Shown here in pieces: positions 22,680-43,998 of a stretch of 64,000 bases of DNA. The position numbers were made by a program, and so were the translations under genes. The stretch lies in sequence record MW394390.1. One strand, given 5' to 3'. The stretch comes from Klebsiella phage vB_KpM_FBKp34. How positions within the stretch are numbered: position 1 is the stretch's first letter; each line of letters starts with the position of its first letter. Below the pieces are notes generated by a model that saw only the letters and a program-made list of their open reading frames with translations, did no database searches and was not told the origin of the DNA.

Positions 22680-22690
22680 ATTAAATCTGA

Positions 22691-26778: not shown

Positions 26779-26896
26779 GTAGTCTCCTGTATAAATATAC
26801 ATGTTTAATGTTGAGATATGACTATACCAAAAGTCATAATGTGTGTCAATAAAAATATAAAAGAAAACCCCAGCATTTCTGCCAGGGTTTATCATG

Positions 26897-27220
26897 TCAT
26901 TCAATTTTAAAGATTGGTCCTGTATCTTCCTCTTCTTCAACCTTAGTTTCCTCTACACCAGATGGCAGTTCATCATCTTCTTGCTCCATTTCTGCAAGGA
27001 CGCTTTCTACTGCCTCTTTGATTGTTTTTGCAGATGAAATTTTATTGGTAACAGAAGCTTTTTCATCATCCAGTACTGCTACAAGATAATTAACTGCTTT
27101 CATATAATTCTCAGCTAACTTCTCTTGACCCTCAAGGATGCTTGTTTGAAGTTCATAAAGAAGTCTATCCTGTCTTGCTGGACGACCACGACCACGTTTC
27201 ATAATTTTTGGTTTAGCCAT
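26897..27220 (-). CDS. small acidic protein with N-terminal AT-hook-like motif
   Basis: KRGRGRPAR near the N-terminus, Glu-rich tail. Confidence 0.4.
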   Translation of the reverse strand: MAKPKIMKRGRGRPARQDRLLYELQTSILEGQEKLAENYMKAVNYLVAVLDDEKASVTNKISSAKTIKEAVESVLAEMEQEDDELPSGVEETKVEEEEDTGPIFKIE

Positions 27221-27257
27221 AATCCTACCTACTTATCTTAGACACTTACAGTGACTT

Positions 27258-27296
27258 ACATAAAAATAAAGCGGCATAGAATTAATCTAGCCGCTT
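27258..27296 (-). terminator. rho-independent terminator downstream of the second tRNA block
   Basis: Minus RNA AAGCGGC-14 nt-GCCGCUU followed by UAUUUUUAUG. Confidence 0.55.
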
Positions 27297-27407
27297 ATAC
27301 AAATGCACTTTAAGATATCACCCTCAGAGGAGAGTTGAGAGTTTATCGGCTTCTTTAACAAAAAGCTGTGCTTATACAGCTAAGGCGCTGCTTGTGCTCA
27401 TTTAAAT

Positions 27408-27484
27408 TGGCAAACCCACTAGGACTCGAACCTAGACTGTACGGTTTTGGAGACCGACATGCTGTCCAGTAACATTCTGGGAAT
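27408..27484 (-). tRNA. tRNA-Trp (anticodon CCA), acceptor with two mismatches
   Basis: D-arm ATGT..GCAT, anticodon arm TCGGT-CTCCAAA-ACCGT, T-arm CTAGG-TTCGAGT-CCTAG, CCA; acceptor ATTCCCA/TGGGTTT pairs only 5 of 7. Confidence 0.5.
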
Positions 27485-27489
27485 ATTGT

Positions 27490-27565
27490 TGGTGGAACCC
27501 GATAGAATCGAACTATCTCCTAATGCTCTTCAGGCATCCGCGCGAACCATCTACGCCAGAGTTCC
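27490..27565 (-). tRNA. tRNA-Phe (anticodon GAA)
   Basis: Acceptor GGAACTC/GGGTTCC, anticodon arm GATGC-CTGAAGA-GCATT, T-arm GATAG-TTCGATT-CTATC, CCA. Confidence 0.8.
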
Positions 27566-27570
27566 TTTAT

Positions 27571-27645
27571 TGGCGGGCATACTTGGACTCGAACCAAGAT
27601 CAAACGGTTAACAGCCGTCCGTACTAACCTTTGTACTATACACCC
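27571..27645 (-). tRNA. tRNA-Asn (anticodon GTT)
   Basis: Acceptor GGGTGTA/TATGCCC, D-arm GTAC..GTAC, anticodon arm GACGG-CTGTTAA-CCGTT, T-arm CTTGG-TTCGAGT-CCAAG, CCA. Confidence 0.8.
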
Positions 27646-27840
27646 TTAAGTTTTACCATAATAGACAGAGATAGTTTTACCATTCTGATTCATTACGTAT
27701 GCTACCTCATCTTCTTTAAGAAAGATATTTTGATCTAGTCCAGAAATAGCAATACTCTTTTGTTTCGGGTTGAATCCGACACTATTGCCATCATGAATCT
27801 CTTCCCCACCTTCTGTCGAAATAACTTTTACTGTTAACAT
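27646..27840 (-). CDS. small hypothetical protein (64 aa) within tRNA cluster
   Basis: CAGGAGAAGCAAATG RBS; stop abuts the 5' end of tRNA-Asn. Confidence 0.4.
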   Translation of the reverse strand: MLTVKVISTEGGEEIHDGNSVGFNPKQKSIAISGLDQNIFLKEDEVAYVMNQNGKTISVYYGKT

Positions 27841-27887
27841 TTGCTTCTCCTGTGGTTTGTCATCTCTGACTTTTAGTTATAAAAATT

Positions 27888-27964
27888 GGTCTCCCCTACA
27901 GGATTCGAACCTGTGACCCGATGCATCCAAAGCACCCACGCTGACCAGACTGCGCTAAGGAGAG
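27888..27964 (-). tRNA. tRNA-Pro (anticodon TGG)
   Basis: Acceptor CTCTCCT/AGGGGAG, anticodon arm GGTGC-TTTGGAT-GCATC, T-arm ACAGG-TTCGAAT-CCTGT, CCA. Confidence 0.75.
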
Positions 27965-27970
27965 ATAATT

Positions 27971-28045
27971 TGGAGGGTAGTAGTGGAATCTAACCACTCT
28001 AATACTGTTTTGCAGACAGATACATGAACACTCTGACAACTACCC
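27971..28045 (-). tRNA. tRNA-Cys (anticodon GCA), weak D-stem
   Basis: Perfect acceptor GGGTAGT/ACTACCC, anticodon loop CTGCAAA, T-arm AGTGG-TTAGATT-CCACT, CCA; D-stem poorly paired. Confidence 0.55.
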
Positions 28046-28051
28046 TTTAAT

Positions 28052-28128
28052 TGGTTGCGGCTATGGGTATTGCACCCATCTTACTCTAGTTTATGAGACT
28101 AGAAAGAACTCTCTGCCTCCCAACCGCA
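28052..28128 (-). tRNA. tRNA-like with anticodon CAT (Met/Ile2), degenerate D-arm and unusual T-loop
   Basis: Acceptor TGCGGTT/AGCCGCA, perfect anticodon arm CTAGT-CTCATAA-ACTAG, T-arm ATGGG-TGCAATA-CCCAT, CCA. Confidence 0.4.
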
Positions 28129-28147
28129 ATAACTTAATACTTAATTA

Positions 28148-28215
28148 TGGCGGGAACTTCATGCACTCCACCATGCGTTGGAAGCCAAGGAGTGTTCTCA
28201 TGTAAGTATTCCCAT
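28148..28215 (-). pseudogene. short tRNA-like remnant (68 nt)
   Basis: Ends in CCA and has partial acceptor pairing TGGGAAT/GTTCCCG but no recognisable D or T arms. Confidence 0.2.
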
Positions 28216-28219
28216 GATT

Positions 28220-28295
28220 TGGTGCTACGGACTGGACTTGAACCAGTGACAACTCGATTATCGGTCGAGCATTCTACCAACTGAATTACCGAAGC
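28220..28295 (-). tRNA. tRNA-Ile (anticodon GAT)
   Basis: D-arm ATTC-AGTTGGTA-GAAT, anticodon arm CTCGA-CCGATAA-TCGAG, T-arm ACTGG-TTCAAGT-CCAGT, CCA; one T-T mismatch in acceptor. Confidence 0.7.
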
Positions 28296-28301
28296 ATTGT
28301 T

Positions 28302-28387
28302 TGGCGGAAGATGCAAGGGTTGAACTTGCACACCCTTTCGGATGGCGGTTTAGCAAACCGCTGTGGCTACCATTTCACCAATCTTCC
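28302..28387 (-). tRNA. tRNA-Ser (anticodon GCT), type II
   Basis: Acceptor GGAAGAT/ATCTTCC, anticodon arm GCGGT-TTGCTAA-ACCGC, variable arm with CCGAAAGGG, T-arm GCAAG-TTCAACC-CTTGC, CCA. Confidence 0.8.
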
Positions 28388-28467
28388 TAAATTTAAAGGC
28401 ATTTAAGCCAGTTAATGTTTCCCTGGATTTATAGACACTGGTTCATTAACATCACACTCGTCTTATC

Positions 28468-28553
28468 TGGCGGTAGATTGAAGAGTCGAACTCCTGCCCT
28501 TTCGGACCCCTCCGGGTTCAAACCGGATTGCCAACCACTTAGCGGAACCTACC
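28468..28553 (-). tRNA. tRNA-Ser (anticodon TGA), type II
   Basis: Acceptor GGTAGGT/ATCTACC, anticodon arm TCCGG-TTTGAAC-CCGGA, long variable arm GGGGTCCGAAAGGGCAGG, TTCGACT T-loop, CCA. Confidence 0.75.
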
Positions 28554-28559
28554 TTTATT

Positions 28560-28637
28560 TGGTACATCTAGAGAGATTCGAACTCATCACTGACTGGAAC
28601 CTAAATCCAGTGCCTCTACCAATTGGGCTATAGATGC
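28560..28637 (-). tRNA. tRNA-like with anticodon TAG (Leu-like) but short variable arm and weak T-stem
   Basis: Acceptor GCATCTA/TAGATGT, 3-bp D-stem with 11-nt loop, anticodon arm CTGGA-TTTAGGT-TCCAG, TTCGAAT loop with only 3 bp T-stem, CCA. Confidence 0.4.
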
Positions 28638-28647
28638 ATTTATTATT

Positions 28648-28725
28648 TGGCGTTCTGTATGGTATTCGAACCCATAGAAATCCACCTTGAAAGGGTGGTG
28701 ACTTTACCTGTTTGTCCAACAGAAC
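28648..28725 (-). tRNA. tRNA-Glu (anticodon TTC)
   Basis: Perfect acceptor GTTCTGT/ACAGAAC, anticodon arm CCACC-CTTTCAA-GGTGG, T-arm ATGGG-TTCGAAT-ACCAT, CCA. Confidence 0.75.
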
Positions 28726-28733
28726 ACAATTTT

Positions 28734-28847
28734 TGGCGGTGAATTCAGGAATCGAACCTGAGCCTACTCCATGACAAGGGAGATTGAATGCTGTAAAACT
28801 TCTCTAAGAAGTTATTTTTAGTTATTCTACCACTAAACTAATTCACC
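28734..28847 (-). tRNA. 114-nt tRNA-Leu-like (anticodon TAG) with about 38 nt of extra sequence
   Basis: Perfect acceptor GGTGAAT/ATTCACC, D-arm GTTT-AGTGGTA-GAAT, canonical anticodon arm AACTT-CTTAGAG-AAGTT, extra hairpin CTCC-CTTGTCAT-GGAG containing a TTTACAGCA repeat motif, perfect T-arm TCAGG-TTCGATT-CCTGA, CCA. Confidence 0.5.
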
Positions 28848-28853
28848 TAAACT

Positions 28854-28930
28854 TGGCGCGTCCGACGGGTTACGATCCCGCATTCTCTCCCGTGACAGGG
28901 GAGTACCATTACCTAGCCAGCCCCAGACGC
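28854..28930 (-). tRNA. tRNA-Asp (anticodon GTC) with non-canonical T-loop
   Basis: Acceptor GCGTCTG/CGGACGC, anticodon arm CTCCC-CTGTCAC-GGGAG, T-arm GCGGG-ATCGTAA-CCCGT (A54/T58), CCA. Confidence 0.65.
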
Positions 28931-29409: not shown

Positions 29410-30849
29410 TTAGAAATCATAACGTGGTACGTTAACTAACTTCTGCATAACTTTAACAGGTTCTAACTCACCTGTCAAGAGTCCTTTCATAATCGCTGGT
29501 GAAAATCCTGAAACCAATGCTGTACCTTTCTGACCTACTTGAACTGGCACGTTGCCTCTCTGATGGGCTGCAAGATTCCAGAAAACAAGCTGAGGCATGG
29601 TATATCCAGACTGACTGTACATGAGAGCAATAGACTCAAAGTTTGTCATACCTGAAATAGCTTGGTTAAATTCCATATCAGAGAATACGATAACTTTACT
29701 AGGCATATCCCCTTGTGTCAAGTTGTGTTTCTTACCTAACTCAAGAATTCTTGCAAAAGCTTTCATAATATCAGTTGATCCATACTCAACATGTTCTTGT
29801 ACCTTAGCAAGTTTCTGTGCAAGAGTCAAGGAACTTCCTACATCAATAAAATAAGGATTTGTTGAATACACCATCATCTGATCTTTAAAGATGCCTTTAT
29901 TACGTTCAGCAATGTAAAGAGATAAAGCAATCCCTACATGAAGAGCATAAATATCACCAGAAACTTTTGCGTTATCAAAAGTCATTGAACCAGAAACATC
30001 AGATAAACAGATAATGTTTTCACTTGTACCTTCAGTATAATCTGGCAATGCTTTCCATTGGGCATTTGCTACTGACTTATCTCCGTGCATACAAGATTTT
30101 ACAATATCATACGGATAAACAGCACCTGCATTGATCTTAGCTTGTCCATCTTCTTTAATCAGGCTTTCACGATACTGTGCATAACGTTCACTGTCCACAC
30201 GATTAAATAGTGCCTGATAACGTGCTGCTGCAAGTGATGGCAGCTTGCTATAATCAATAGCACCGTATTCTTTGCGAGAAAGACTCTGTTCCACAGTATT
30301 AGACAAAGAGGACAAGAGTTTATTATATTCCTGATAACTCAGTTTCATAAATTTAGCAAGTACCTTTGCATTATTTTTATTTTTAACTGTGTTATTTCCA
30401 CGCATACGTGGCATCCATTTTGCGCATAGTCCTGCGTTAGTCTTATCTGTTAAACAGTCAGCGATAAACTGCAAGGCTTCTTTTTCAACTGGTGTTCCAA
30501 TAGCTTCAAGAACATCGTCCCAACGACCAAGTTCTGGAATCTTAACTAACAAACGTGTTGCGAGTTTTGGATTCTGGTCACAAATGTTTTTAAATGTTTT
30601 TCTAAAAATATTTCTTTCACCCATACCTCCGCGAATATCTCGGGAGTACAGAAGAATACGTACAGCAGTTTCAGCATCTTCACTAAGAGCTTGCCAGAAA
30701 AGATCATCAGAAACAACATTCGGATTCTTACGTAAAGTACCAATCTGGAAAAACAAATCCACATTTTTATTCAGTGAAGATTCATGAGTAACTGCACCAT
30801 TAAGTGTCAGTTGGGACTTAGTACGGGATGCATCAAACAGCTTAGACAT
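29410..30849 (-). CDS. putative Ro60/TROVE-like RNA-binding protein with C-terminal von Willebrand A domain (DUF2828-type)
   Basis: 479 aa; C-terminal vWA with MIDAS LSDVSGSM; N-terminal ~270 aa helical domain of Ro/TROVE-like character (domain call by memory, not verified). Confidence 0.45.
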   Translation of the reverse strand: MSKLFDASRTKSQLTLNGAVTHESSLNKNVDLFFQIGTLRKNPNVVSDDLFWQALSEDAETAVRILLYSRDIRGGMGERNIFRKTFKNICDQNPKLATRLLVKIPELGRWDDVLEAIGTPVEKEALQFIADCLTDKTNAGLCAKWMPRMRGNNTVKNKNNAKVLAKFMKLSYQEYNKLLSSLSNTVEQSLSRKEYGAIDYSKLPSLAAARYQALFNRVDSERYAQYRESLIKEDGQAKINAGAVYPYDIVKSCMHGDKSVANAQWKALPDYTEGTSENIICLSDVSGSMTFDNAKVSGDIYALHVGIALSLYIAERNKGIFKDQMMVYSTNPYFIDVGSSLTLAQKLAKVQEHVEYGSTDIMKAFARILELGKKHNLTQGDMPSKVIVFSDMEFNQAISGMTNFESIALMYSQSGYTMPQLVFWNLAAHQRGNVPVQVGQKGTALVSGFSPAIMKGLLTGELEPVKVMQKLVNVPRYDF

Positions 30850-31247: not shown

Positions 31248-32102
31248 TTAGAAATTATCTATAACAGTTTCACCAGCTTCTAACCAAACTATCTTAAAAA
31301 TTATACGGTTAGCATTACCTGATGTGTTAATTAAATTTACTTGAAAATTAGATCCTTTAGGGAAAATTTGATATCCTTGGTCTCTTGAGCTAGATGCTGA
31401 AGTCCTTTGTGACGGATTACTTCCGCTTGCTGGGATAAAAGATGGTATATCATATAAAGAACCTATTCCTGTAGGGTTCCCAGATAAAACATGAATACTC
31501 ATTGTTGAATTTGAACCAAATCCTTGGTTACTTTTCACAGGGGTAATTAAAGAAGCATTAGTTTTTCCTGTACTACCTACATAAGTTCTTGCTTCAAACC
31601 CTGTATAAAAAGGTGTAAAATTGGTAGACACAATAGCGCACTCTTTGTCTGAAGGGACTATAAAATCAATCCATATGTTACCACCATTTGCAATGGTAAG
31701 ATCCACTATTGCACTGTACAACCTACCATCGATAGATGCTGCCTCTATTTGGGTTATTGTTTGTGTAAGTATTCTTGGTTCAATCAACCTTAAAAGTTTT
31801 CTAGAAGATGACCTCACATCTGAAGCCAAAACTTTATGTGCTGCTAATCTTCCCAAACCATAGGTTGAATCAGCTATAACAAAAACACCCTCCATTTGAG
31901 AGGGAACATAAAATTCTTCTTTTGAAGAAATTATATTAACTGTTGATTTATCAATATTTGTTACAGAACTCCCAAAATAAATCCTTATTGGAACTTCAGA
32001 GATATTTTCAAGAAGATAAGAAAATTTAGAATCAAAACCAGATACAGTATAAAGATTAGTCCAAGTATCATTAGAAATATTTGGAGTGAGAACTCTATTC
32101 AT
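31248..32102 (-). CDS. hypothetical protein (beta-rich, Ser/Thr/Asn-rich)
   Basis: 284 aa ORF. Confidence 0.45.
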   Translation of the reverse strand: MNRVLTPNISNDTWTNLYTVSGFDSKFSYLLENISEVPIRIYFGSSVTNIDKSTVNIISSKEEFYVPSQMEGVFVIADSTYGLGRLAAHKVLASDVRSSSRKLLRLIEPRILTQTITQIEAASIDGRLYSAIVDLTIANGGNIWIDFIVPSDKECAIVSTNFTPFYTGFEARTYVGSTGKTNASLITPVKSNQGFGSNSTMSIHVLSGNPTGIGSLYDIPSFIPASGSNPSQRTSASSSRDQGYQIFPKGSNFQVNLINTSGNANRIIFKIVWLEAGETVIDNF

Positions 32103-32191
32103 TTTATTTTCCTTATGTTTTATTTATATTTTAACATAAAGATTAAATATTTACCAGATAAATAAAAGCCCCAATTAAGGGGCTTAATTTT

Positions 32192-33877
32192 TTAAAGTTG
32201 TGACGCTGCTCGTTCACGAATCGTTGTCAGGTCTTCATCGACAATCAGCTTGCCGTTGTAGAACACACGACGCAACTCGTTATCGTCAGACTGTACATCT
32301 TCAAGCTGACAATTGTCAACCAGTTTCAGTTCGCCATTCTCATCACGAACAACCTTCAGGAAACCTTTTGCAGATTTCTTACCGAGGTCAGTCTTCGGTT
32401 CTTTGACAACCATGATCTGCTGACCATCAATCACAGCGCCAGTTGCCTTAACAGCCATACCCAGTGAATCGCGGGTTGTGTACTGCGTGGTGAAAGAACC
32501 GACGCCGTAAACAATGTTGCTGGATGCAAAACCTTTTTCTTTCAAACGTTCAAAGATGTCTTTTGCACGAGCAACAGTGATGGAGTCACCGTAAATCAGA
32601 CCAACATGACTATCAAGAACTTTGTAACCTTTAGTGTTAAATTCACCACCGAAGATTTCCCACAGACACTGGATTGCACCTTTAACTTCATGCTCTTCAA
32701 GACCTGAAGGTTGGAAGTCGAAGTAGGCATTATTCTCATCGTCAACAAGAATCCGGTAGTATTTACCTTCAATCTTGGCAACTTCTGAATTTGAATCTTC
32801 CTGTAGTGCTGAGTGTGCATCAGACCAGTCATCAAACTCACCGAGGCTACGATAGCCAGCAATGATATGCTCTGGAATACCAGAATCAGGACGGAATACT
32901 ACACGACCATCACGGGCCATGATGTCCTGTTTCAGGATCGCTGCTGCTTTGGTGATAATCGCCCAAAAGTCATAACTGTCTGCCACGTAGGAAACAAAAC
33001 CTTTAGGGAAAATTTCCGTAATGTAACGACGCAGGAACTCAACCTCAGCCAAGAAACGCGCTTCATCCAGAGTCAATTCAGGGTGTTCACCTTGTAAACG
33101 ACCAACGATGAAACCGATGTTCGTTGTTGCAACAGAGTGTTCAGATGCAGGAATAGAACCAGCAACGAACTTGCCTTTCATGTTGTAATAACGATTTGCA
33201 TACAGAATTGCTGGGATAGTATCAGTACCCATTGAGTTGATCAGTTGACCAAACTCACTCTGTGCTGCGTCGTGCGTCCCAGATTCACCACGATATGCGA
33301 AACAGTGGTTCTGGAAAGGCACATGCAAGTTGTTATCGCAAGTCTCAGCAGCCCATTTTTCAGACAGCTTGCGATACTGCCAGAACGTAGTTGCAGTCGT
33401 AATAGTTTTCCAAGTTTCTGCGGAGATCACACTTTCCAGGAAGTTAGGCAACCAGTAAAAATCAGGATGCGTGTTCTGAATGGTGAACAGCGGAACCTGT
33501 ACCGGAGACAGAGTACCTTCAGGAATCGAACGGATTTCCAGTGGCAGATAACCAAGGTCATGCAGCTTTTCAAATCCCCAAGTTTCAACCATGTTAGGAC
33601 CAATACTCAGATCACAAATTTCTTTGTACTGTTCAATAGCTTCTTCTTTACTTTTCTTGAAGAAGTTTTCGTTAAACATGTCGATAAGGAACCACTTAAT
33701 GAATCCCTGAAGACCTGCCATCATAACACGCTGGTCGTTATCAGCGAAGTGAATGAAGTGCTTCGCATTTCGTGGTGTCATGTTGTCCTGAACAATCTCA
33801 GAGCGTTTATCGTACATAGAAATGTGGCTTGGCTTATACCAATCCGCAAACATGATAGGGTTTTCTTTATACAGCAT
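32192..33877 (-). CDS. nadV: nicotinamide phosphoribosyltransferase (Nampt / NadV-like)
   Basis: 561 aa; NAPRTase-family motifs (GTDTIPA, DSYD, GLIYGDSIT, VYGVGSFT); co-localised with prs, nadR-like and pnuC. Confidence 0.7.
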   Translation of the reverse strand: MLYKENPIMFADWYKPSHISMYDKRSEIVQDNMTPRNAKHFIHFADNDQRVMMAGLQGFIKWFLIDMFNENFFKKSKEEAIEQYKEICDLSIGPNMVETWGFEKLHDLGYLPLEIRSIPEGTLSPVQVPLFTIQNTHPDFYWLPNFLESVISAETWKTITTATTFWQYRKLSEKWAAETCDNNLHVPFQNHCFAYRGESGTHDAAQSEFGQLINSMGTDTIPAILYANRYYNMKGKFVAGSIPASEHSVATTNIGFIVGRLQGEHPELTLDEARFLAEVEFLRRYITEIFPKGFVSYVADSYDFWAIITKAAAILKQDIMARDGRVVFRPDSGIPEHIIAGYRSLGEFDDWSDAHSALQEDSNSEVAKIEGKYYRILVDDENNAYFDFQPSGLEEHEVKGAIQCLWEIFGGEFNTKGYKVLDSHVGLIYGDSITVARAKDIFERLKEKGFASSNIVYGVGSFTTQYTTRDSLGMAVKATGAVIDGQQIMVVKEPKTDLGKKSAKGFLKVVRDENGELKLVDNCQLEDVQSDDNELRRVFYNGKLIVDEDLTTIRERAASQL

Positions 33878-34466
33878 CTTTTGTGTCTCCTTTGTGGTTT
33901 ATTCTATAAAATATGCAATTTCTATGAGAGTGTCTTTTACCTTTTACAACAGCACTAACTAAGCGATAGTCAAAGCCATAATCTCTCATCTCTTCATTGC
34001 CATTCATAATAGCAACTATTTCATTTGTGTCAAGAGTTATTGCAAATATTGTGAAAGATAATCTTGTTGCCCTCCTCCCACTTGGCATATCCTTCAACCC
34101 ATTGGCAAGTGCGTGAATTTGGTTAGTTTTGTTATCAACCCACTCAAGGTTTTCAACATTATTGTTTTGCTTGTTACCATCCTTGTGGTTGACTTGAGGA
34201 AGTCTTGTAGGATTAGGTATAAATGCTTCTGCAACTACACGATGAACCTTGAGACTGACTTTCTTGCCACTTTTATCCTTCGTCCTAAGACGTAAATAAC
34301 CACAATTATCTTCTTGAAATTTTAAAATCTTGCCTTTTACTTTACATAAGGTTCCTGTATCAGACCGTGCATAAACACGGTCAACAGAATAGATATTACC
34401 TTCGTTATCTACTTCAAGATATCCTTCAAAATCCTGAACGGATTTCTTTGAGAATTCCATGTTCAT
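33867..34466 (-). CDS. HNH homing endonuclease (NUMOD4-type N-terminus plus HNH_3)
   Basis: Start re-assigned to ATG at 34466 (GGGAGA RBS); HNH motif NHKDGNKQNNNVENLEW; 5' end overlaps the 3' end of prs. Confidence 0.6.
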   Translation of the reverse strand: MNMEFSKKSVQDFEGYLEVDNEGNIYSVDRVYARSDTGTLCKVKGKILKFQEDNCGYLRLRTKDKSGKKVSLKVHRVVAEAFIPNPTRLPQVNHKDGNKQNNNVENLEWVDNKTNQIHALANGLKDMPSGRRATRLSFTIFAITLDTNEIVAIMNGNEEMRDYGFDYRLVSAVVKGKRHSHRNCIFYRINHKGDTKDAV

Positions 34467-35271
34467 TTCTCCCTGAAATATTTTCCATCCATGGATGGTA
34501 AGTGTAAACCTCATCAACAAACCCTTCGAGGATATCTATCCCTTTTGAGAAGATACCATGTGTAACGTATAAAATTACACGTTTTGCACCTTTTTGTTTA
34601 AGAACCTCCCCTAATTTAAGAAAGGTGAACGCACCATCGGCGATGTCATCTACGATGACACATTCTTTACCAGCCACATCCCCAAAAACCTCTGTCCCGA
34701 AAATTTCTCCTGTCGTTACATCACGAACCTTACCAGCCTCCACCAGTGGAAGGCGCATACGATCTGCAACCTTTTGTGCTTTCTTCCTTGCACCAGCATC
34801 TGGTGCTACAATAATAACGTCTCCACCATAAAGGTGGTCATGGAATTCTGAAATCAGTATATCTTGACCACGAACATGAACATTGTTTAGTAATGCTGTT
34901 GAAACATCACTATGTGGATCATCTACCACAACTTTATCAAAACCAAGCGAGTTTACAATGTTTGCAAATACCTTAATGGCAAGAGCTTCACCAGGCTGCA
35001 TCACACGATCCTGCCGAGCATAGGGGATGTAAGGCAGATTTAGAGTAAACTCTGCATGAACATCAAGATTCTCAAGCCGAGAAACTGCATCCACGAGTAA
35101 AGCCAATACCATAATATCCGCAGAATTTTTAATCTTTGCTGTAATGTCAACAAAACCAATACTACCTTTCGGAGCATGGTTCAAGTCAATCTTCACTTGC
35201 TCCTCACCACCTTTGAACGTAAAGTGGTCTACAGGAACAATAAGTTTGTTCAGTCTAAGTTCAAGACTCAT
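34426..35271 (-). CDS. prs: ribose-phosphate pyrophosphokinase (PRPP synthetase)
   Basis: 281 aa; PRPP-binding loop VIVDDIADGAFT and Prs-type N-terminal domain. Confidence 0.7.
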   Translation of the reverse strand: MSLELRLNKLIVPVDHFTFKGGEEQVKIDLNHAPKGSIGFVDITAKIKNSADIMVLALLVDAVSRLENLDVHAEFTLNLPYIPYARQDRVMQPGEALAIKVFANIVNSLGFDKVVVDDPHSDVSTALLNNVHVRGQDILISEFHDHLYGGDVIIVAPDAGARKKAQKVADRMRLPLVEAGKVRDVTTGEIFGTEVFGDVAGKECVIVDDIADGAFTFLKLGEVLKQKGAKRVILYVTHGIFSKGIDILEGFVDEVYTYHPWMENISGRNEHGILKEIRSGF

Positions 35272-35651
35272 TTTAAATCTCCTCTATTAACTACTATGTA
35301 ATGTCTTGGTTTTGCATGACCTGATTGGTCTACAAAACCACTCTTGATTCTTTGTATATAACCATACTCTTCCATCCTTTTCAAGAACTCTGTTACTTTT
35401 GTTCTTGATTTTTCCCCAAATCCAAGTAATTCACACAATGTTTGTTGGGAAGGATAGAACACTTTAGTCAAATCTGCAAGCTTGTCTTTCTTCTTAGCCA
35501 AGTGACAAAAGTAGTCATATCTCCACCATAATCTTATCAATCTTTGTAAATCACCACCAGACAACCTCTTATCGAAAACCCAGTAGACAGGGATAGAGAC
35601 AAAAGAGTTCTCTTTTATTATAATCTCATTGTCATCTAACCTTATTTTCAT
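35268..35651 (-). CDS. putative winged-helix DNA-binding regulator
   Basis: 127 aa; HTH-like segment QQTLCELLGFGEKSRTKVTEFLKRMEEYGYIQR; first gene leftward from the divergent regulatory region. Confidence 0.35.
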   Translation of the reverse strand: MKIRLDDNEIIIKENSFVSIPVYWVFDKRLSGGDLQRLIRLWWRYDYFCHLAKKKDKLADLTKVFYPSQQTLCELLGFGEKSRTKVTEFLKRMEEYGYIQRIKSGFVDQSGHAKPRHYIVVNRGDLK

Positions 35652-35699
35652 CCAAGTTGCTCCTGCCTGTATCTCACTCTATAAGTTTTACCACTTCAC

Positions 35700-35990
35700 A
35701 GTTTCAGTGTCAACACCTAATTGTCCCTAAAAAGAGACATTCCTAATTGTCCCTAAAAAGGCACACAATACTAACTTATGATCTAGTTTATAGACTAACT
35801 TATGATTATATATTATTAATTATAAATAATTAATATGATTTAGATCACATGTAAATTTATACAGTTGTTTTGTGATCTAAATTTATGTTTTATCATCTTT
35901 TGATCACATAGTAAAGTTAAAAAATAATCTTGACTTTAGTCTAATAGATAGTTAGTATCTATACATAAATTAATAATTATGAGGTACTTA
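35700..35990. promoter_or_regulatory. divergent regulatory region with direct and inverted repeats
   Basis: Two direct copies of CCTAATTGTCCCTAAAAAG; 12-bp inverted repeats ATTTAGATCACA / TGTGATCTAAAT about 30 nt apart; repeated AACTTATGAT. Confidence 0.45.
35930..35958 (+). promoter_or_regulatory. sigma70-like promoter for the rightward operon
   Basis: TTGACT-17 nt-TAGTAT, then GAGGT RBS before the ATG at 35990. Confidence 0.5.
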
Positions 35991-36286
35991 TGTCAGATTT
36001 TACTACAATCATGTCAGTGGTAGATAAACCGAACAAGCGTATGCGTAAAGAGAAACCTACCACTGAAGAAGTCTTGTTCTTAGATCAGGTAAGAAGTGTA
36101 AGACTCTCTGTAATCCATGGTCAACCTGTTGTAGTGGTAACGGAAACAGAAAGAAGTTTTGAAGATGTCTTCAAACAGTACACCAGTGTGATGAAACTTT
36201 ATGACAAAAGAGGCTTGATCACACTGAAGAGTCTTGATAAAGTTACAGCTTCAGATTTAGATAAAAATATTGTGGAGATCCATTAA
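35990..36286 (+). CDS. hypothetical protein
   Basis: 98 aa, first ORF of rightward operon, GAGGT RBS. Confidence 0.45.
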   Translation: MSDFTTIMSVVDKPNKRMRKEKPTTEEVLFLDQVRSVRLSVIHGQPVVVVTETERSFEDVFKQYTSVMKLYDKRGLITLKSLDKVTASDLDKNIVEIH

Positions 36287-37332
36287 TGACTATTGGTTTG
36301 ATTTTTGGGAAGTTTGCACCTTTACACTTAGGACACATCAACATGGTGATCAAAGCTTCTGCTTTGGTTGACACATTGCATGTGGTCTTAAGTTATGATC
36401 AAAAATTCAATGATACATTAGAACCTAGTGTTAGTGAACCTTTAACCAAAGCCAACAGACATTTAGCTTTGATTGAAACCTTTAAAGATTTTAATAACAT
36501 CATCGTCAGTGTCATTGATGAAAGTGCGGTTCCTGGTTATCCAGAAGGTGAAGTAATGTTCACTAATATGCTGAAGAAAAAGACTAGAACTCTACACTTC
36601 GATAAAGTATTTACAAGTGAACCTAGTTATGATAAGTATCTTAAAGATAATTTTCCAGACTCTGAGCACATCGTTGTAGATGCTAACCGTGATGAAGTAA
36701 ATATCAGTGCAACAATGATCAGAAATAATCCCTATAAGTATTGGGATTTTATTGCTCCAGCCATGAGAAAACACTATGTGAAAAAAGTTTGTATCATTGG
36801 TGTAGAGTCTACTGGCAAATCAACACTAGTTAAAAAGCTCTCTAAAGCTCTACAGACGCTTTTTGTAGAAGAGGTAGGTCGAACTATCTGTGAGCAAGAA
36901 TATGGCCTCACAGAGGCTTACATGAAGCCTGAAGACTATGTATACGTTGCTATGAAGCATAAGATGAAAGAAAAGGAACTTTTGCCATATGCAAACAAGA
37001 TTTTGTTGAGTGATACAAATGCAGTTGTGACAGACTTTTCTATGAATACATTTAACAACTTGGAGCACTACTCCCCACTGTTGTCAGAGATCTGTTTTGC
37101 TGAGAAATATGATCTTGTCTTGTACTTACGTAATGACATCCCTTGGGTAGATGACCCTTTACGTAAAAAATCAACACAAGATGACAGAGAAAAATCACAA
37201 AAGGTTCTTGACAATTTTGTATACAACGTTTATAAAGTTTATGAGAAGTGTCCAGTTATCCAAATTGGTGGGACTTACGAAAACCGCTTCAATGAAGCAA
37301 TGAAAGAAATTAAAAAACTTCTAGCAAGTTAA
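36286..37332 (+). CDS. nadR: bifunctional NMN adenylyltransferase / ribosylnicotinamide kinase (NadR-like, NatV-like)
   Basis: N-terminal nucleotidyltransferase motif FGKFAPLHLGH; C-terminal Walker A GVESTGKST of the RNK domain. Confidence 0.8.
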   Translation: MTIGLIFGKFAPLHLGHINMVIKASALVDTLHVVLSYDQKFNDTLEPSVSEPLTKANRHLALIETFKDFNNIIVSVIDESAVPGYPEGEVMFTNMLKKKTRTLHFDKVFTSEPSYDKYLKDNFPDSEHIVVDANRDEVNISATMIRNNPYKYWDFIAPAMRKHYVKKVCIIGVESTGKSTLVKKLSKALQTLFVEEVGRTICEQEYGLTEAYMKPEDYVYVAMKHKMKEKELLPYANKILLSDTNAVVTDFSMNTFNNLEHYSPLLSEICFAEKYDLVLYLRNDIPWVDDPLRKKSTQDDREKSQKVLDNFVYNVYKVYEKCPVIQIGGTYENRFNEAMKEIKKLLAS

Positions 37333-37346
37333 AAACAGGAGTCTTT

Positions 37347-37532
37347 ATGAAAATAGGTGATATGGTACGTTGTACTCACAGTGCAGATAATGATTTTACT
37401 GTAGGTAAGCTTTACATTATTGATGCTTTTGATGGAGATGGTGATCCTATTCTAGTTGATAACGATGGATATATAGGTAACATTGGAGTGATTATGAATG
37501 GCTATCTTTACCAGTTTGAGGAGGTAAAATGA
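37347..37532 (+). CDS. hypothetical protein
   Basis: 61 aa ORF. Confidence 0.35.
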   Translation: MKIGDMVRCTHSADNDFTVGKLYIIDAFDGDGDPILVDNDGYIGNIGVIMNGYLYQFEEVK

Positions 37533-38227
37533 ATATTTATCTTAAAACAACTTTGACTGATTTTTATGGTTGGTCTAAGTTAGAATATCTTTGGCTTTTT
37601 GTTTGTTCCGTAACTATTGCAGCAACATCAGTTATTATGGGTGCAACTCTCGTTGAATTTGTTTCATCTGTTACAGGGATCATTGGTGCGATCCTTGTTG
37701 CTAAAGGGAAACTCTCAAGTTACTACTGGGGATTTGTTGCAACAGCATTGTATGCATATATCTCATTCACATACAAAATGTATGGTGAAACAATTATGTA
37801 TACTGTATTGTTTACACCTTTACAGTTGATTGGTGGTATTCTTTGGTCTCAAAAGTTAAAGCTTTCTGAAGATGGACAGAAGGCGGATGTTGTTAAGAAA
37901 TGGTTAACAACTCAACAACGTCTCATTGTTACTGTTGGTACACTAATCGTTATTGCAGCCTATGCTTATGGTGTTTCCTTGTTGAAGGGATATTCTCCTG
38001 GTTTAGATTCTGCGACAGCAATTCTCTCTGTGCTAGCTACAGTGTTAATGGTACTACGTTACTCTGAACAATGGTATGTTTGGGTAATTGTTAACATTGT
38101 TGCCGTTGTTCTTTGGATTCAGGCTACAATGCATCATGAGGGTGGAGGAGCAGTCGTGTTAGTAATGTGGGTTGCTTACCTCTTAAACTCAGTGTATGGT
38201 GTATATCAGTGGCGTAAAATTGCTTAA
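37529..38227 (+). CDS. pnuC: nicotinamide riboside transporter PnuC
   Basis: 232 aa, multiple TM helices, Trp-rich PnuC-like signature segments; follows nadR-like gene. Confidence 0.65.
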   Translation: MNIYLKTTLTDFYGWSKLEYLWLFVCSVTIAATSVIMGATLVEFVSSVTGIIGAILVAKGKLSSYYWGFVATALYAYISFTYKMYGETIMYTVLFTPLQLIGGILWSQKLKLSEDGQKADVVKKWLTTQQRLIVTVGTLIVIAAYAYGVSLLKGYSPGLDSATAILSVLATVLMVLRYSEQWYVWVIVNIVAVVLWIQATMHHEGGGAVVLVMWVAYLLNSVYGVYQWRKIA

Positions 38228-38855: not shown

Positions 38856-39145
38856 AGAAAGAGAAATTTGATACTTCTGCTTTCGTGTTTGAGACTGATC
38901 TATCTGCTCTTGAAGAAAAGCTTCTGGCCTGTTATGCTGAGTTAGAGGATCTTCTTGAGTACCAACAACCTGATTCTGAACAAAGAAAAAGGATTGAGGA
39001 ACTCAAGTATTGGCTTGGTTGGTATGAGTTAAATTTACCAGAGGCTAAAAGGAGAAATTTAAAATTTATCTTAACTTGTGCAATAGAAAATAGAGTTTTA
39101 GGATTATATGAAAAGAAAAAAAGTTTTCGGAGTAGGAGTAAATGA
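38831..39145 (+). CDS. hypothetical protein
   Basis: 104 aa ORF. Confidence 0.4.
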   Translation: MGTTGKTIKKEKFDTSAFVFETDLSALEEKLLACYAELEDLLEYQQPDSEQRKRIEELKYWLGWYELNLPEAKRRNLKFILTCAIENRVLGLYEKKKSFRSRSK

Positions 39146-39743
39146 CTCAAAGATTCCTGTTAGTTGGTGGGAGGATAGAGGAGAAAAAAGAGTTAGAATT
39201 TTATGCCCTTATTATGTAAAATGGACAGACATGTTGAGACGATGTTATAGTGAAAAACAAAATCTTATGTCTCCTTGGTATGACTCTAAAGTTCATAATG
39301 AATGGCATATTTTTAGCAACTTCAAATCTTGGATGGAAAAACAAGATTGGGAAGGAAAACACCTAGATAAAGATATACTTGGAGATAAAAGTTTATATAG
39401 CAAAGATACTTGTGTATTTGTTCCATATTATGTAAATAATGTTTTTCAAAATCACCAAGATTGTTCTTACTGTACATACCATAAACGTGACAATAAATAT
39501 CAAAGTTCAATAAATTGGGATGGAAGAGTTAAACATATTGGTTATTTTGACAGTAAAGTAGAGGCACAATATGAATATTTTAAAGTTAAAATATTATACA
39601 TATCTGGTAAAATTAAAAGGTATTTTTCAGAAAACTATGATTCTAGGGTTATGTTGAAATTAATAATGTTATACAATAACTTAGTTGAAACATTTCAAGC
39701 TTTAAAAGTAAAATTAATAGAGTTAAAAGGAGATTTAAAATGA
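39108..39743 (+). CDS. putative homing-endonuclease-like DNA-binding protein (AP2/HNH-associated fold)
   Basis: 211 aa with W..M..RCY...Y..V.V...W..F..F..WM pattern seen in phage HNH/AP2 endonucleases. Confidence 0.3.
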
Positions 39744-40585: not shown

Positions 40586-41143
40586 ATGTATGTGACTTCA
40601 GACCTGCATTTTATGCATAGGAGGGTTTCTGAATTTTGTCCTGCTTATAGAAAATGGAATTATCTTCATGATATGACAGAAGGACTTATTTTAGCTTGGA
40701 ATGAAAAAGCTAAAACACCAGGGACAAAAATGTATCATCTCGGCGATTTCTGCTTTGGGACACCAGAAGAAACAGATCTCATAGCTTCCCGTCTGAATGG
40801 TGATATTACATTTATTGTTGGCAACCATGATTACTCAAAACACCGAGAAGTGCTTGAGAAGTATGGTGAAGTGAAGTATTACGATGAAGTTAAATATGGT
40901 AAGAAATTCTTTGTCCTTTGTCACTATCCTATTGCATCTTGGAATAAACAAGGAAGAGGTTCAATTATGCTTCATGGGCATAGTCATGGAAGTTTTCCTG
41001 ATGAAATGTATGGAAAGATGTTAGATGTCGGTTGGGATGCACAAGGGAAGATCTTGCATTTTGATGAAATCATTGCTAAGATGGAGCGTCGTGAAGTAAA
41101 AGTAATTGACCACCACAAAAATTTTGGTTTAGATAATGAATAA
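40586..41143 (+). CDS. calcineurin-like metallophosphoesterase (candidate RNA/DNA end 3'-phosphatase)
   Basis: Motifs DLHF, GDF, GNHD, HGHSH. Confidence 0.7.
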   Translation: MYVTSDLHFMHRRVSEFCPAYRKWNYLHDMTEGLILAWNEKAKTPGTKMYHLGDFCFGTPEETDLIASRLNGDITFIVGNHDYSKHREVLEKYGEVKYYDEVKYGKKFFVLCHYPIASWNKQGRGSIMLHGHSHGSFPDEMYGKMLDVGWDAQGKILHFDEIIAKMERREVKVIDHHKNFGLDNE

Positions 41144-41333
41144 AGACATTGATCTTATTGAGAATGTAATATTTCTTCTGAGTGAACTTGAAGATTATGT
41201 TGACAACCTAGATATGAGCGAATATGATGACTTCAATGAGATGAAGGAAGCACAAAAAGAAGTTCTTAAACTTTTGAAGAATCTTACACGAAGGAGAGAA
41301 AATGAAGTTCAACGTAGACGACTTAGTTGCTAA
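41136..41333 (+). CDS. hypothetical protein
   Basis: 65 aa ORF. Confidence 0.35.
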   Translation: MNKDIDLIENVIFLLSELEDYVDNLDMSEYDDFNEMKEAQKEVLKLLKNLTRRRENEVQRRRLSC

Positions 41334-42222
41334 AAATCTGGTGACTAAAAAGACTTACACCGAAGGCCCGTTCGCTGGTCTTTCTGTGCTCAAATATAAG
41401 AACAATGTGTTCTGGGACAACCTGTGGCATACAGACTCACGTCTGCTTGAGTGTCGTGGTATGGTTGTTGATGCAGAAGACAACGTTATTATCTGGCCTT
41501 TTACGAAGATTTTTAACCGTTTCGAGAATGGAACAGACTTACCACTCGATCAGCAGGTTGTTTGCATTCGTAAAGTCAACGGATTTATGGCAACTGCTGC
41601 GGTACGTGGTGAAAAACTTCTTGTATCAACGACAGGAACCTTGGATTCTGAGTTCTCTGATCTGGCACGGAAATATCTTGAAAAGATGAAATTAGATCTT
41701 GTTGCATTTCCAGAGGACTATACTTTCATCTTTGAAATTTGTGACAGTAGCGACCCTCACATTGTTGAGGAGGAAGAGGGTGCATATTTGATTGGTATGC
41801 GAGACTTAGCCTTAAATGGGACAATGCTTGAAGAATATCGTCTTGATCGCATAGCTGAAGTGATCGGAGCAAAGCGTCCTGAATGGCATAATATGTTCTT
41901 CAGTGATGTGATCAAGTACTCCAAGGCTGTAACTCACGAAGGTTTTGTTATCCGTAATGTCGGAACAGATAACGAAAACAGCGAACTGCTTCTTAAAATA
42001 AAGTCACCACATTACTTGACGAAGAAGTTCCTGATGCGAGGTGGACAGAACAAGTGGGACATGATCTGGGACAATCCAAAAGAAGCTAAAAAGCGTATTG
42101 ATGAAGAATATTATAACCTTATTGATTATTTACGCTGGGCCTTTGAAAAAGAGGAATGGGCAGTTAAAGATGCTCAATATCGTCGTAAATGGATCGAGGC
42201 TTATTTTGAGGAGAAATGCTAA
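41302..42222 (+). CDS. putative ATP-dependent RNA ligase (Rnl-like nucleotidyltransferase)
   Basis: Motif I KVNG, motif III FIFEI, motif IV EGFVIR, motif V LKIKS. Confidence 0.5.
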   Translation: MKFNVDDLVAKNLVTKKTYTEGPFAGLSVLKYKNNVFWDNLWHTDSRLLECRGMVVDAEDNVIIWPFTKIFNRFENGTDLPLDQQVVCIRKVNGFMATAAVRGEKLLVSTTGTLDSEFSDLARKYLEKMKLDLVAFPEDYTFIFEICDSSDPHIVEEEEGAYLIGMRDLALNGTMLEEYRLDRIAEVIGAKRPEWHNMFFSDVIKYSKAVTHEGFVIRNVGTDNENSELLLKIKSPHYLTKKFLMRGGQNKWDMIWDNPKEAKKRIDEEYYNLIDYLRWAFEKEEWAVKDAQYRRKWIEAYFEEKC

Positions 42223-42566
42223 TGATCGTATGGCTTGATGACTTAAGAGATCCAAAAGACTACGGTTATCCTGATGCATTGTGGTTTAAGACCTCTCAGA
42301 AGTTTATGGATTTTCTTGATAATCGGTCAAAGTTCTATCGTTATGTCACAGAGTGGCATTTCGATAATGACCTCGGAGAAGATTCAGAAATGGAGGGCTA
42401 TGACTGCCTGTTAGCCTTGGAAGAGAAGCTTGTGTATGGGAAACTTCCTGTGCATGATGCTAAACTCTATGTCCACACATCTAACCCTTCTGCGGCAAAA
42501 AAGTTCATGCTTGCAAAAGAGAGCTTCTTGAAGTATCGTATCACGATCTTAAGAAACAATTACTGA
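42216..42566 (+). CDS. hypothetical protein
   Basis: 116 aa ORF. Confidence 0.4.
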   Translation: MLMIVWLDDLRDPKDYGYPDALWFKTSQKFMDFLDNRSKFYRYVTEWHFDNDLGEDSEMEGYDCLLALEEKLVYGKLPVHDAKLYVHTSNPSAAKKFMLAKESFLKYRITILRNNY

Positions 42567-42575
42567 GGAGAAGAG

Positions 42576-43001
42576 ATGGAAAAGACTCTGATTATCTTGC
42601 GTGGTGTGTCTGGTGCTGGTAAGTCTACAGTAGCAGAAATGTTATCAGATGGCGTATGGCCTATCTGTGAAGCAGATAAATTTCACTACACGGAAGAGGG
42701 TGTTTACGACTGGAAACCTGAAAATATCCAGGCAGCGCATAAATGGTGTCAAAATCAAGTAAGAGGTTACATGGAAGACAGCTTCCATGGTTTAGGTAAC
42801 TGGGTAAAAATAATTGTATCTAACACTACAACTACTGAAAAAGAACTTAAACCATATATTGACTTAGCTGAAGAGTATGGGTATAAAGTTGTTAGTTTGG
42901 TTGTTGAAAATAGACATGGAAATGATTCTATTCATAACGTCCCACAGGAAATCCGTGATACTCAAGAGAGACGTCTTAGAAACTCATTAAAATTACAGTA
43001 G
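42576..43001 (+). CDS. P-loop kinase (polynucleotide 5'-kinase-like)
   Basis: Walker A ILRGVSGAGKST at the N-terminus; 141 aa, size of T4 Pnk kinase domain. Confidence 0.4.
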   Translation: MEKTLIILRGVSGAGKSTVAEMLSDGVWPICEADKFHYTEEGVYDWKPENIQAAHKWCQNQVRGYMEDSFHGLGNWVKIIVSNTTTTEKELKPYIDLAEEYGYKVVSLVVENRHGNDSIHNVPQEIRDTQERRLRNSLKLQ

Positions 43002-43009: not shown

Positions 43010-43222
43010 ATGAAACATATTTTAATAGTACTATTATTCTTATCTTATTCAGTTTTTGCAAATGAGAATAAGAAGGATGTATTTTTGTTTACACCTAAAA
43101 CTGATGAGATCTTCGAAGTCAAAACTAATGATGGAAAACAATTGTGGTGTTATGTCTCCGATAAATTAATAACGAGATTAACTATAAAGTGCTTTGATAA
43201 AAATTTTGATAAGGAGAAATAA
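43010..43222 (+). CDS. small secreted protein
   Basis: Signal peptide MKHILIVLLFLSYSVFA. Confidence 0.4.
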   Translation: MKHILIVLLFLSYSVFANENKKDVFLFTPKTDEIFEVKTNDGKQLWCYVSDKLITRLTIKCFDKNFDKEK

Positions 43223-43998
43223 TGAGACGTCTTATAGTAATAAGTGGGGCGGGCTTCTCTGCGGAGAGCGGTGTACGTACATTCCGCACAGATACTGAAT
43301 CTGGGAAAGCTTTATGGGATGAATATGACCTTGAGGAGGTTTGTAACATACACGCCTTCCGTGGTAACTTCTACCATAAAACACACATGTTTTATAACAA
43401 GCGTCGTGCAGAGTTACCAACGGTACACCCGAATGCTGCACATCTTCGTGTTGCTGAATGGTACAAACGTTATCCTGGACAAGTTATCAACATGACGACT
43501 AACGTCGATGATTTGTTGGAACGTGCAGGTGTACCGAAAGAAGATACTCTGTACATTCATGGATACCTGAAAGAAATTCGTTATCAGATGCATGAGGATT
43601 CTGAAGAAGAATTGGTGGATATTGGTTATGCACAAATTGATCCTGATGATTATTATTGGTGCAAACCAAACGTAGTATTTTTTGGGGAGAATGCTCCGGC
43701 CTATGCTGCTATGTATGACACCTTGGAGTCATTGACAAATCAGGATCTTGTAATTGTTGTAGGCTGTTCAAATACAGTTATTAACTTCAACTGGGAACTT
43801 TTCCCTGCTTCAAGGATTGGTACTAAGGTTGTTGTAGTCAATCCAAATGTTCGGTATGATGAGCAGTTGATGTACGAAGATGCTGGTGTTATAGTTTATC
43901 GGACTGGAGCAGTGGATGCCTTTAGTAACTTAGATCTGATTAAAATGGTTGAAGACCATCTCGAAGGTAAAACTGGGCTTCAAAAATTAGGAAAATGA
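43222..43998 (+). CDS. Sir2-family NAD-dependent deacylase/ADP-ribosyltransferase-like protein
   Basis: GAGFSAESGVRTFR NAD-binding motif and Sir2 fold pattern. Confidence 0.65.
   Translation: MRRLIVISGAGFSAESGVRTFRTDTESGKALWDEYDLEEVCNIHAFRGNFYHKTHMFYNKRRAELPTVHPNAAHLRVAEWYKRYPGQVINMTTNVDDLLERAGVPKEDTLYIHGYLKEIRYQMHEDSEEELVDIGYAQIDPDDYYWCKPNVVFFGENAPAYAAMYDTLESLTNQDLVIVVGCSNTVINFNWELFPASRIGTKVVVVNPNVRYDEQLMYEDAGVIVYRTGAVDAFSNLDLIKMVEDHLEGKTGLQKLGK

Follow-up and report, generated by a model that had tools for sequence, protein, structure and literature searches.

Two described phage systems for rebuilding nicotinamide adenine dinucleotide (NAD+) provide the background for the locus analysed here, positions 32,192 to 38,227 of a 64,000-nucleotide stretch (the window) of Klebsiella phage vB_KpM_FBKp34 (MW394390.1). 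In the first, NARP1, a phage operon annotated 'Prs-Nampt' encodes Adps, which turns ADP-ribose (ADPR) plus ATP into ADPR pyrophosphate (ADPR-PP), and Namat, which combines ADPR-PP with nicotinamide to yield NAD+ (Osterman et al., bioRxiv 10.1101/2024.02.11.579819). NARP1 lets phages escape SIR2-HerA, type I Thoeris, DSR1/2 and SEFIR, and the same study is the experimental basis of NARP1 and NARP2 (10.1101/2024.02.11.579819); sequence criteria derived from structures exist for Namat (PMC12774641) and Adps (PMC13586617). In the second system, NARP3, a NadR-like enzyme without a helix-turn-helix (HTH) domain (Bas30_86) and a PnuC transporter (Bas30_87) import nicotinamide riboside (NR), make NAD+ from it, and neutralise Sir2-HerA and DSR1 (PMC13464706).

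The initial annotation described this locus as a single, complete NAD+ pathway made of four genes named for Nampt, Prs, NadR and PnuC. All four genes are where that annotation placed them, profile searches give family matches far beyond chance, and no paralogues of the four occur elsewhere in the window. The single-pathway claim does not hold up, however: in all likelihood, judging from sequence comparison, the cluster consists of two separate and already described phage NAD+ reconstitution systems, NARP1 and NARP3, placed back to back on one divergent region. The leftward operon (35651 to 32192) is most likely a NARP1 module and the rightward operon (35990 to 38227) most likely a NARP3 module. 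Gene content, family signatures, synteny and conservation of the layout within the phage lineage are directly observed features of the locus, and the comparison also brings in four genes that the annotation had omitted, namely a gene with HNH and NUMOD4 domains, ORF127, ORF98 and ORF61 (ORF, open reading frame). The nearest relative of the window is Klebsiella phage KP13-16 (OP617741); the two are 98% identical over 90% of the first 25 kb, a value that falls to 95% in the region in question.

Adps-like and Namat-like proteins of the leftward operon

The 281-residue protein with the family label Prs (34426-35271, minus strand) matches Pribosyltran_N, Pribosyltran and Pribosyl_synth, and matches TIGR01251 with an E-value of 3.5e-45 and 154 bits. 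Among Prs models it passes only this broad subfamily model and falls below every equivalog-level Prs threshold, with scores that include 133 bits against a cut-off of 297 and 113 bits against a cut-off of 438. Compared directly, it scores 164 bits (42.6% identity) with ICP1 Adps and 144 bits with Bas63_0079, versus 97 bits with E. coli Prs and 94 bits with the best Prs in the PDB, the canonical side of this comparison being one Prs sequence and the PDB matches. Its PP loop (D208-D209-I-A-D212-G-A-F-T-F) reads DDIADGAFTF, against DDICDGAASF in ICP1 Adps and DDMIDTGGTL in E. coli Prs, so that the ribose-5-phosphate loop DTGGT of Prs is replaced by DGAFT. In alignments K181 corresponds to the essential K185 of ICP1 Adps, and R86, H120, D158, D208, D209 and D212 are kept. 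The C-terminal helices of Prs (alpha11-alpha12 region) are missing, the protein having 281 residues compared with 315 in E. coli Prs and its alignment stopping before that segment. Synteny points the same way as these features, as a Namat-like gene is the next gene downstream on the same strand in 79 of the 80 IMG/VR loci that carry Adps relatives, with a median gap of ~130 bp. The equivalog thresholds, the PP loop and the truncated C-terminus all speak against a canonical Prs, and we refer to the protein as Adps-like. Because the family name is misleading, the further claim that a Prs makes this cluster unusually complete is unsupported.

The 561-residue protein with the family label Nampt/NAPRTase (32192-33877, minus strand) matches PF04095 (1e-26) and NF006629 (7e-144). 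Its best solved structure is SpbetaL1 Namat (9W5X/9W5W; 3.9e-124, 418 bits), compared with 180 bits (4e-52) for the true Nampt of Xanthomonas (Xcc) and ~165 bits (1e-47) for that of human. The same residues as in SpbetaL1 Namat occupy 17 of 20 NAD+-contact positions, including the catalytic His247, R329, F462 and Y466, and the catalytic core of SpbetaL1 (F189, R192, D215, the catalytic His, R306 and D308) is kept as F193, R196, D219, H247, R329 and D331. The adenine-clamp (SCH) motif GSFTTQYTTRD lies at G460-D470, where F462 and Y466 are the adenine-stacking aromatics; the corresponding motif of KVP40-type NadV, which is 29% identical to the 561-residue protein, is GGGLLQQLDRD. The NadV used here is the homologue from VH1_2019, a phage of the same species as KVP40; KVP40.0259 (PF04095, 298 residues) was rejected as comparator, as it is not NadV. 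Two insertions that lengthen the 561-residue protein are also found in Bas63_0080, a Namat validated in vivo. The name Nampt is right for the family, as PF04095 indicates, and most likely wrong for the biochemistry, given the Namat clamp and the 418 versus 165-180 bits. All solved-structure matches are of the nicotinamide type, despite an NCBIfam label of 'nicotinate', which sets aside the concern that the protein might be a nicotinate phosphoribosyltransferase only. Positions 3-222 of the PHROG profile phrog_12872 (547 positions) align with the Adps-like protein and positions 254-539 with the Namat-like protein, and this profile implies that fused Adps-Namat proteins probably exist in some phages.

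The leftward operon starts with ORF127 (35268-35651, minus strand; 127 residues), which overlaps the start of adps by 4 nt and is discussed below with the control region. At the other end, 7 nt past the namat stop codon, a GC-rich hairpin with a T run behind it resembles a terminator (32166-32185, listed on the minus strand). Its 7-bp stem has 5 GC pairs and can be read on either strand, and the hairpin is likely the 3' end of the NARP1 operon.

Between adps and namat lies a gene for an HNH_3 and NUMOD4 homing endonuclease identified by profile matches (33867-34466, minus strand), whose reading frame is open from 34520 and whose likely start is 34466 or 34460. With a single gene in between, adps and namat are well inside the 10 genes that Osterman et al. 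allow. KP13-16 lacks the insert (33896-34480), and the same insertion occurs in contig L196, which carries the same HNH gene and adps allele (98%). On both outer sides of the HNH region, identity to KP13-16 is ~100%; it falls to 62-82% over ~700 bp of the 3' part of adps (flank 34460-35160) and to ~80% over ~130 bp of the 5' end of namat (flank 33760-33895). These diverged flanks look like a homing co-conversion tract. The Adps-like protein is accordingly a mosaic, with 80% amino acid identity to KP13-16 compared with 96-100% for the products of neighbouring genes, because the putative tract covers the 3' part of its gene. In this lineage the short adps-namat spacer is a hot spot for insertions: it is empty in L192 (9187-9249) and contains a 50-residue ORF in KP13-16 and L193 (4059-4211), a 209-residue ORF without a Pfam match in L195 (9187-9816), and the HNH gene in the window (33877-34426) and L196 (1668-2267). 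About a quarter of 79 IMG/VR NARP1 loci have an adps-namat gap of at least 590 bp. Inside the HNH gene there is also an extended -10 match on the minus strand (34006-34033; TTGACA-16-TATTAT with an upstream TG, 11/12), and this consensus match, which lies ~130 nt upstream of namat, could allow namat to be transcribed separately from adps.

NadR-like enzyme and PnuC transporter of the rightward operon

The second gene of the rightward operon (36286-37332, plus strand) encodes a 348-residue NadR-like protein with CTP_transf_like at residues 6-147 and AAA_28 at 167-334, and NadR models match it at 7e-71 and 9e-67. Its match to PRK08099 starts at model position 65 and protein residue 2; as the N-terminal HTH DNA-binding domain is missing, identity as a bacterial trifunctional NadR regulator was rejected. 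The best solved structure is that of Bas30_86 (9X6F; 1.8e-61). Of 17 functional residues of Bas30_86 (tested or ligand-contact residues of sites 1 and 2), 14 are identical, and they include E229 and D276, so that the equivalents of the essential Bas30_86 E230 and D275 are kept; the substitutions are R167 to K, which is conservative, D115 to S and D164 to H. The motifs GKFAPLHLGH and ISATMIR of nicotinamide mononucleotide adenylyltransferases (NMNAT) and the kinase Walker A motif GVESTGKST are present. Based on these domains and motifs, the proposal that the protein combines NMNAT with ribosylnicotinamide kinase (RNK) activity is borne out at the level of both sites, and the possibility that its NMNAT site is defective is not supported, as that site is intact in sequence.

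PnuC (37529-38227, plus strand; 232 residues) was also correctly identified, with matches to PF04973 (1.7e-38) and TIGR01528 (9e-34, above cut-off) and a gapless alignment of 220 residues with the NR transporter of Neisseria mucosa (4QTN; 8e-41). The NR-binding residues Q94 and N180 of Bas30_87 are kept as Q99 and N189. The gene starts 197 nt beyond the stop codon of the NadR-like gene, and pnuC likewise follows the NadR-like gene within 0-2 kb in 17 of the 17 IMG/VR loci that carry NadR-like relatives. Two small genes complete the operon. ORF98 (35990-36286, plus strand; 98 residues, phrog_4868), which overlaps the start of the NadR-like gene by 1 nt, is 97-100% conserved in relatives, whereas the spacer occupied by ORF61 (37347-37532, plus strand; 61 residues), which overlaps the start of pnuC by 4 nt, is variable among them.

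Juxtaposition, control region and neighbouring genes

The adjacency of NARP1 and NARP3 is lineage-specific and rare elsewhere. KP13-16 and four contigs assembled from public sequencing runs (L192-L195) keep the back-to-back layout, and it occurs in none of the 177 related loci sampled outside the lineage: 17 loci from IMG/VR and 80 from metagenomes had neither Adps nor Namat within 8 kb of the NadR-like gene, and 80 sampled Adps loci had neither a NadR-like gene nor PnuC within 10 kb of Adps. As an IMG/VR scan with a single NadR-like protein gave no confirmed relatives, alignments were used as queries instead. The exact sequence of the NadR-like protein of the window has no entry in the contig index. 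Both systems in one genome, far apart, are common among related phages; they lie 40-55 kb apart in phage AV124 and in no fewer than seven genomes from IMG/VR, and hits for both were also obtained in ICP1 isolates and Bacillus phage vB_BanS-Thrax1. The AV124-type genomes and the window have a common backbone, one side of which consists of the RNA ligase, the phosphoesterase and small ORFs and the other of ORF127-Adps-Namat, and this comparison places the cassette ORF98-NadR-ORF61-PnuC next to the divergent control region. The cassette is itself a mosaic, its PnuC being 67-74% identical to PnuC of Vequintavirinae and its NadR-like enzyme ~40%. Within the lineage, L192, L193 and L195 resemble the window more closely on the NARP3 side (ORF98 97-100%, NadR-like enzyme 95-97%, PnuC 90-98%) than on the NARP1 side (ORF127 75-83%, Adps 75-76%, Namat 86-93%), which suggests recombination or faster evolution of the NARP1 arm. 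No report that NARP1 and NARP3 lie together was found among the papers searched.

The two operons diverge from a 338-bp intergenic region (35652-35989), at which gene strand and GC skew switch for the window as a whole. A candidate leftward promoter has a -35 element TTGACA (35713-35708) and a -10 element TAAAAC (35690-35685), and a candidate rightward promoter reads TTGACT-17-TAGTAT (35930-35958). We treat both as candidates only, because sigma-70-like sites between 31 and 39 kb are as frequent as expected from shuffled sequence (27 versus 26.2). The region also contains repeats that are found nowhere else in the window: two copies of a 24-nt direct repeat (35716-35765) abutting the leftward TTGACA, two copies of a 13-nt repeat (35770-35806), and three copies of TT[AT]GATCACA (35838-35909), two of which make a perfect 12-nt inverted repeat. 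A tandem repeat pair abutting TTGACA, with differing repeat sequences, is also found upstream of ORF127 homologues in five other phages, and it is by this comparison that the region appears to be regulatory.

ORF127 keeps its place upstream of adps in loci of the Vequintavirinae type, and an AlphaFold2 model (pLDDT 82) predicts that it is a winged-helix protein. Its best fold matches are weak and fall on RepA_N initiator and DnaD N-terminal domains (TM 0.52-0.57, E ~4e-3). RepA_N plasmid initiators bind iterons. ORF127 and the repeats at the skew switch could form an autoregulated promoter or a replication origin, and ORF127 with its tandem repeats might regulate the island.

Several genes around the two operons were also inspected. 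Just downstream of the terminator-like hairpin of the leftward operon, a 284-residue ORF (31248-32102) weakly matches phrog_5335 and has no Pfam match. L192 and L196 carry this ORF but KP13-16 and L195 do not, which makes it a variable accessory gene. Beyond it is a gene for a 479-residue protein with DUF2828 and DUF7788 (vWA-like) domains (29410-30849; PHROG 850 label 'RNA-binding protein'), which is conserved beside the NARP1 arm in KP13-16, L192, L195 and L196, and 17 tRNA genes are located on the minus strand of that arm in two clusters (21380-28930). On the pnuC side, a 211-residue ORF (39108-39743) is absent from KP13-16 and has relatives of 30-33% identity at varied positions in other phages; in L015 a relative sits between the NadR-like and PnuC genes, and in L195 a 240-residue ORF beside pnuC has a weak AP2 match. 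The 211-residue ORF is probably a mobile, homing-endonuclease-like gene. Further downstream, in the same direction, genes for a metallophosphoesterase (40586-41143), a T4 Rnl1-type RNA ligase (41302-42222), a protein with a cREC_REC 'cyclic-phosphate processing' domain (42216-42566) and an AAA_33 kinase (42576-43001) form a possible RNA-repair set (40586-43001). About 5 kb beyond pnuC, the same strand also encodes a 258-residue SIR2-family protein (43222-43998; PF02146, 1e-23). SIR2 proteins are an NAD+-consuming enzyme type. L192 and L195 also have this SIR2-family gene, and the annotation of Bas30, the reference phage for NARP3, lists a Sir2-like protein too.

Proposed function, competing explanations and comparison with described systems

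From homology to validated members we infer the enzyme activities and the counter-defence role, and on that homology the initial proposal that the locus counters NAD+-depleting defences remains the most likely one. Both operons would probably be transcribed from the divergent region early in infection. When a SIR2, TIR or SEFIR NADase cleaves NAD+ into ADPR and nicotinamide, the Adps-like enzyme would pyrophosphorylate ADPR with ATP to ADPR-PP, and the Namat-like enzyme would join ADPR-PP and nicotinamide directly to NAD+. In parallel, PnuC would import NR, and the NadR-like enzyme would convert it via nicotinamide mononucleotide (NMN) to NAD+. Two independent substrate sources would then keep NAD+ available to the phage during depletion by abortive infection. 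A second route to NAD+ makes sense because NARP1 can use neither the ADPR-1''-phosphate made by aRES nor the AMP and NMN made by Metis (10.64898/2026.01.28.702374). As a speculation, the NMNAT domain of the NadR-like enzyme may salvage NMN from Metis-type cleavage or from a PRPP-dependent (PRPP, phosphoribosyl pyrophosphate) side activity of Namat.

A number of observations weigh against the assignment to NARP1 and NARP3. Identity to the validated proteins is 37-43%, and the set behind the Adps-Prs comparison is narrow, as described above. The PP loop of the Adps-like protein has Ala where other Adps have Cys (Cys215 of ICP1), and the HNH insertion gives this protein a 15-residue C-terminal extension. 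In Namat, the SCL loop provides an adenine-stacking residue, which is the third residue if this is R and the following one if the third is K or Y (PMC12774641); the position is K39-H40 in the 561-residue protein, compared with K-W in Bas63 and R40 in SpbetaL1, and stacking by H40 is plausible from the sequence. Namat retains the PRPP-dependent, NMN-forming side activity in vitro (PMC12774641), and by analogy the 561-residue protein may make a Nampt-like contribution. In PnuC, G50 takes the place of Bas30_87 N45, a position that is also Gly in the PnuC proteins of AV124 and KVP40.

The side activity of Namat bears on the proposal that the locus encodes one linear, NARP2-like pathway, in which Prs supplies PRPP, Nampt makes NMN, the NMNAT domain of the NadR-like enzyme converts NMN to NAD+, and PnuC and RNK add an entry for NR. 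We regard this as very improbable. The family names fit it, an NMNAT domain is encoded 1 kb away, and Namat homologues make NMN from PRPP in vitro when ADPR-PP is absent (PMC12774641; 10.1101/2024.02.11.579819), but the Prs-like protein carries Adps signatures and fails the equivalog-level Prs thresholds, and SpbetaL1 Adps gave no measurable product in an assay for Prs activity (10.1101/2024.02.11.579819). The Nampt-like protein, for its part, carries the Namat clamp and is only distantly similar to KVP40-type NadV; the 80 sampled Adps loci all lack NadR-like and PnuC genes within 10 kb, and NARP1 of Bas63 is functional in a host without nadR and pncC. It is also unlikely, if less so, that the locus serves to raise NAD+ for the needs of the phage itself, such as those of the SIR2-family protein encoded at 43222-43998, irrespective of defence. 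This explanation draws on the position of the SIR2-family gene in the same rightward gene block, on the description of NadR/PnuC as NAD+ biosynthetic clusters in jumbo phages (PMC11662467), and on KVP40 NARP2, which raises NAD+ even without a defence system (10.1101/2024.02.11.579819). A purely metabolic role is possible for NARP3 but a poor fit for NARP1, which depends on free ADPR; in the Bas63 experiments ADPR accumulated only under an active NADase. In addition, the homologues that have been validated for both modules show clear counter-defence phenotypes, and the DNA ligase of the window is of the ATP-dependent type, so there is no evident ligase demand for NAD+.

An extension of the NARP1-NARP3 assignment would treat the locus as an integrated island, with the two modules on one operator-rich divergent region, co-expressed early, complementary and exchanging intermediates. 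In such an island, recycling of ADPR and nicotinamide would act against SIR2 and TIR NADases, NR import against aRES-type depletion, and the NMNAT domain would re-adenylylate NMN. The layout on one repeat-rich region, kept in the window, KP13-16 and L192-L195 and found in 0 of 177 loci elsewhere, is in favour of integration, as is the inability of NARP1 to use the products of aRES and Metis (10.64898/2026.01.28.702374). The distance of 40-55 kb between the modules in related phages, however, shows that adjacency is not required, and it may be an accident of where the cassette was inserted. We therefore put forward both the integrated layout and this division of labour only tentatively, and favour two mechanistically independent modules that lie side by side.

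Read in this way, the locus reveals no new kind of system. Both modules have been described (2024 and 2026), and the modest new point is their lineage-specific juxtaposition, which would be a natural physical linkage of two mechanistically independent NAD+ reconstitution systems in a Klebsiella phage. The locus also illustrates that phage genes named 'Prs' and 'Nampt' usually denote an ADPR-recycling NARP1 and not PRPP and NMN synthesis, so that the family names mislead. It is relevant to the choice or engineering of therapeutic phages against hosts with NAD+-depleting defences, and it offers a convenient system in which to ask if stacked pathways widen the range of defences escaped (SIR2/TIR, aRES, Metis).

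Among described systems, NARP2 (KVP40 NadV Nampt and NatV Nmnat), to which the initial annotation had likened the locus, also rebuilds NAD+ with a Nampt-fold enzyme and NMNAT activity. The analogy fails on the Nampt-fold protein, which is of the Namat type here (clamp motif, 29% identity to KVP40-type NadV) and is paired with an adjoining Adps, and on the NMNAT, which is of the NadR type and not the NMNAT-Nudix type of NatV; identity with NARP2 was rejected on the clamp motif and similarity scores. NARP1-AP (Adps, the Macro-domain phosphatase Adpp and Namat; Vibrio phage Gary; bioRxiv 10.64898/2026.01.28.702374) likewise has an extra gene between adps and namat, but the extra gene of the present locus encodes an HNH homing endonuclease and not Adpp. 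As the ORFs scanned between 29.4 and 47 kb contain no Macro domain (E <= 0.01) and the neighbourhood has no RyR domain, NARP1-AP and RyDEP-extended NARP1 were both rejected. The bacterial PnuC-NadR salvage route (Salmonella, Haemophilus; 1LW7, 4QTN) uses the same two families and the same chemistry as the rightward operon; the genes considered here are phage-encoded, lack the HTH repressor domain and presumably form an early operon.

The closest counterparts are NARP1 and NARP3 themselves. With NARP1 of Bas63 (Bas63_0079/0080), SpbetaL1, Fado and ICP1 the locus has in common the order adps then namat on the same strand, the PP loop, catalytic Lys and truncated C-terminus of Adps, and the clamp motif and catalytic core of Namat; with Bas63 it also has in common the long form of Namat with its two insertions. 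It differs from the validated modules in its sequence divergence, the HNH gene that separates adps from namat, the Ala that Adps has in place of Cys215 of ICP1 and its C-terminal extension, the winged-helix ORF overlapping the start of adps, and the presence of NARP3 as a neighbour. With NARP3 (phage TrudiRoth, Bas30; PMC13464706) it has in common a NadR-like RNK and NMNAT enzyme without HTH followed by PnuC in one operon. The enzyme and transporter are 38% and 35% identical by BLASTP to those of TrudiRoth, ORF61 splits the pair, the equivalent of N45 is Gly, and the module is carried by a myovirus of the KP13-16 lineage, whereas TrudiRoth is a T5-like phage.

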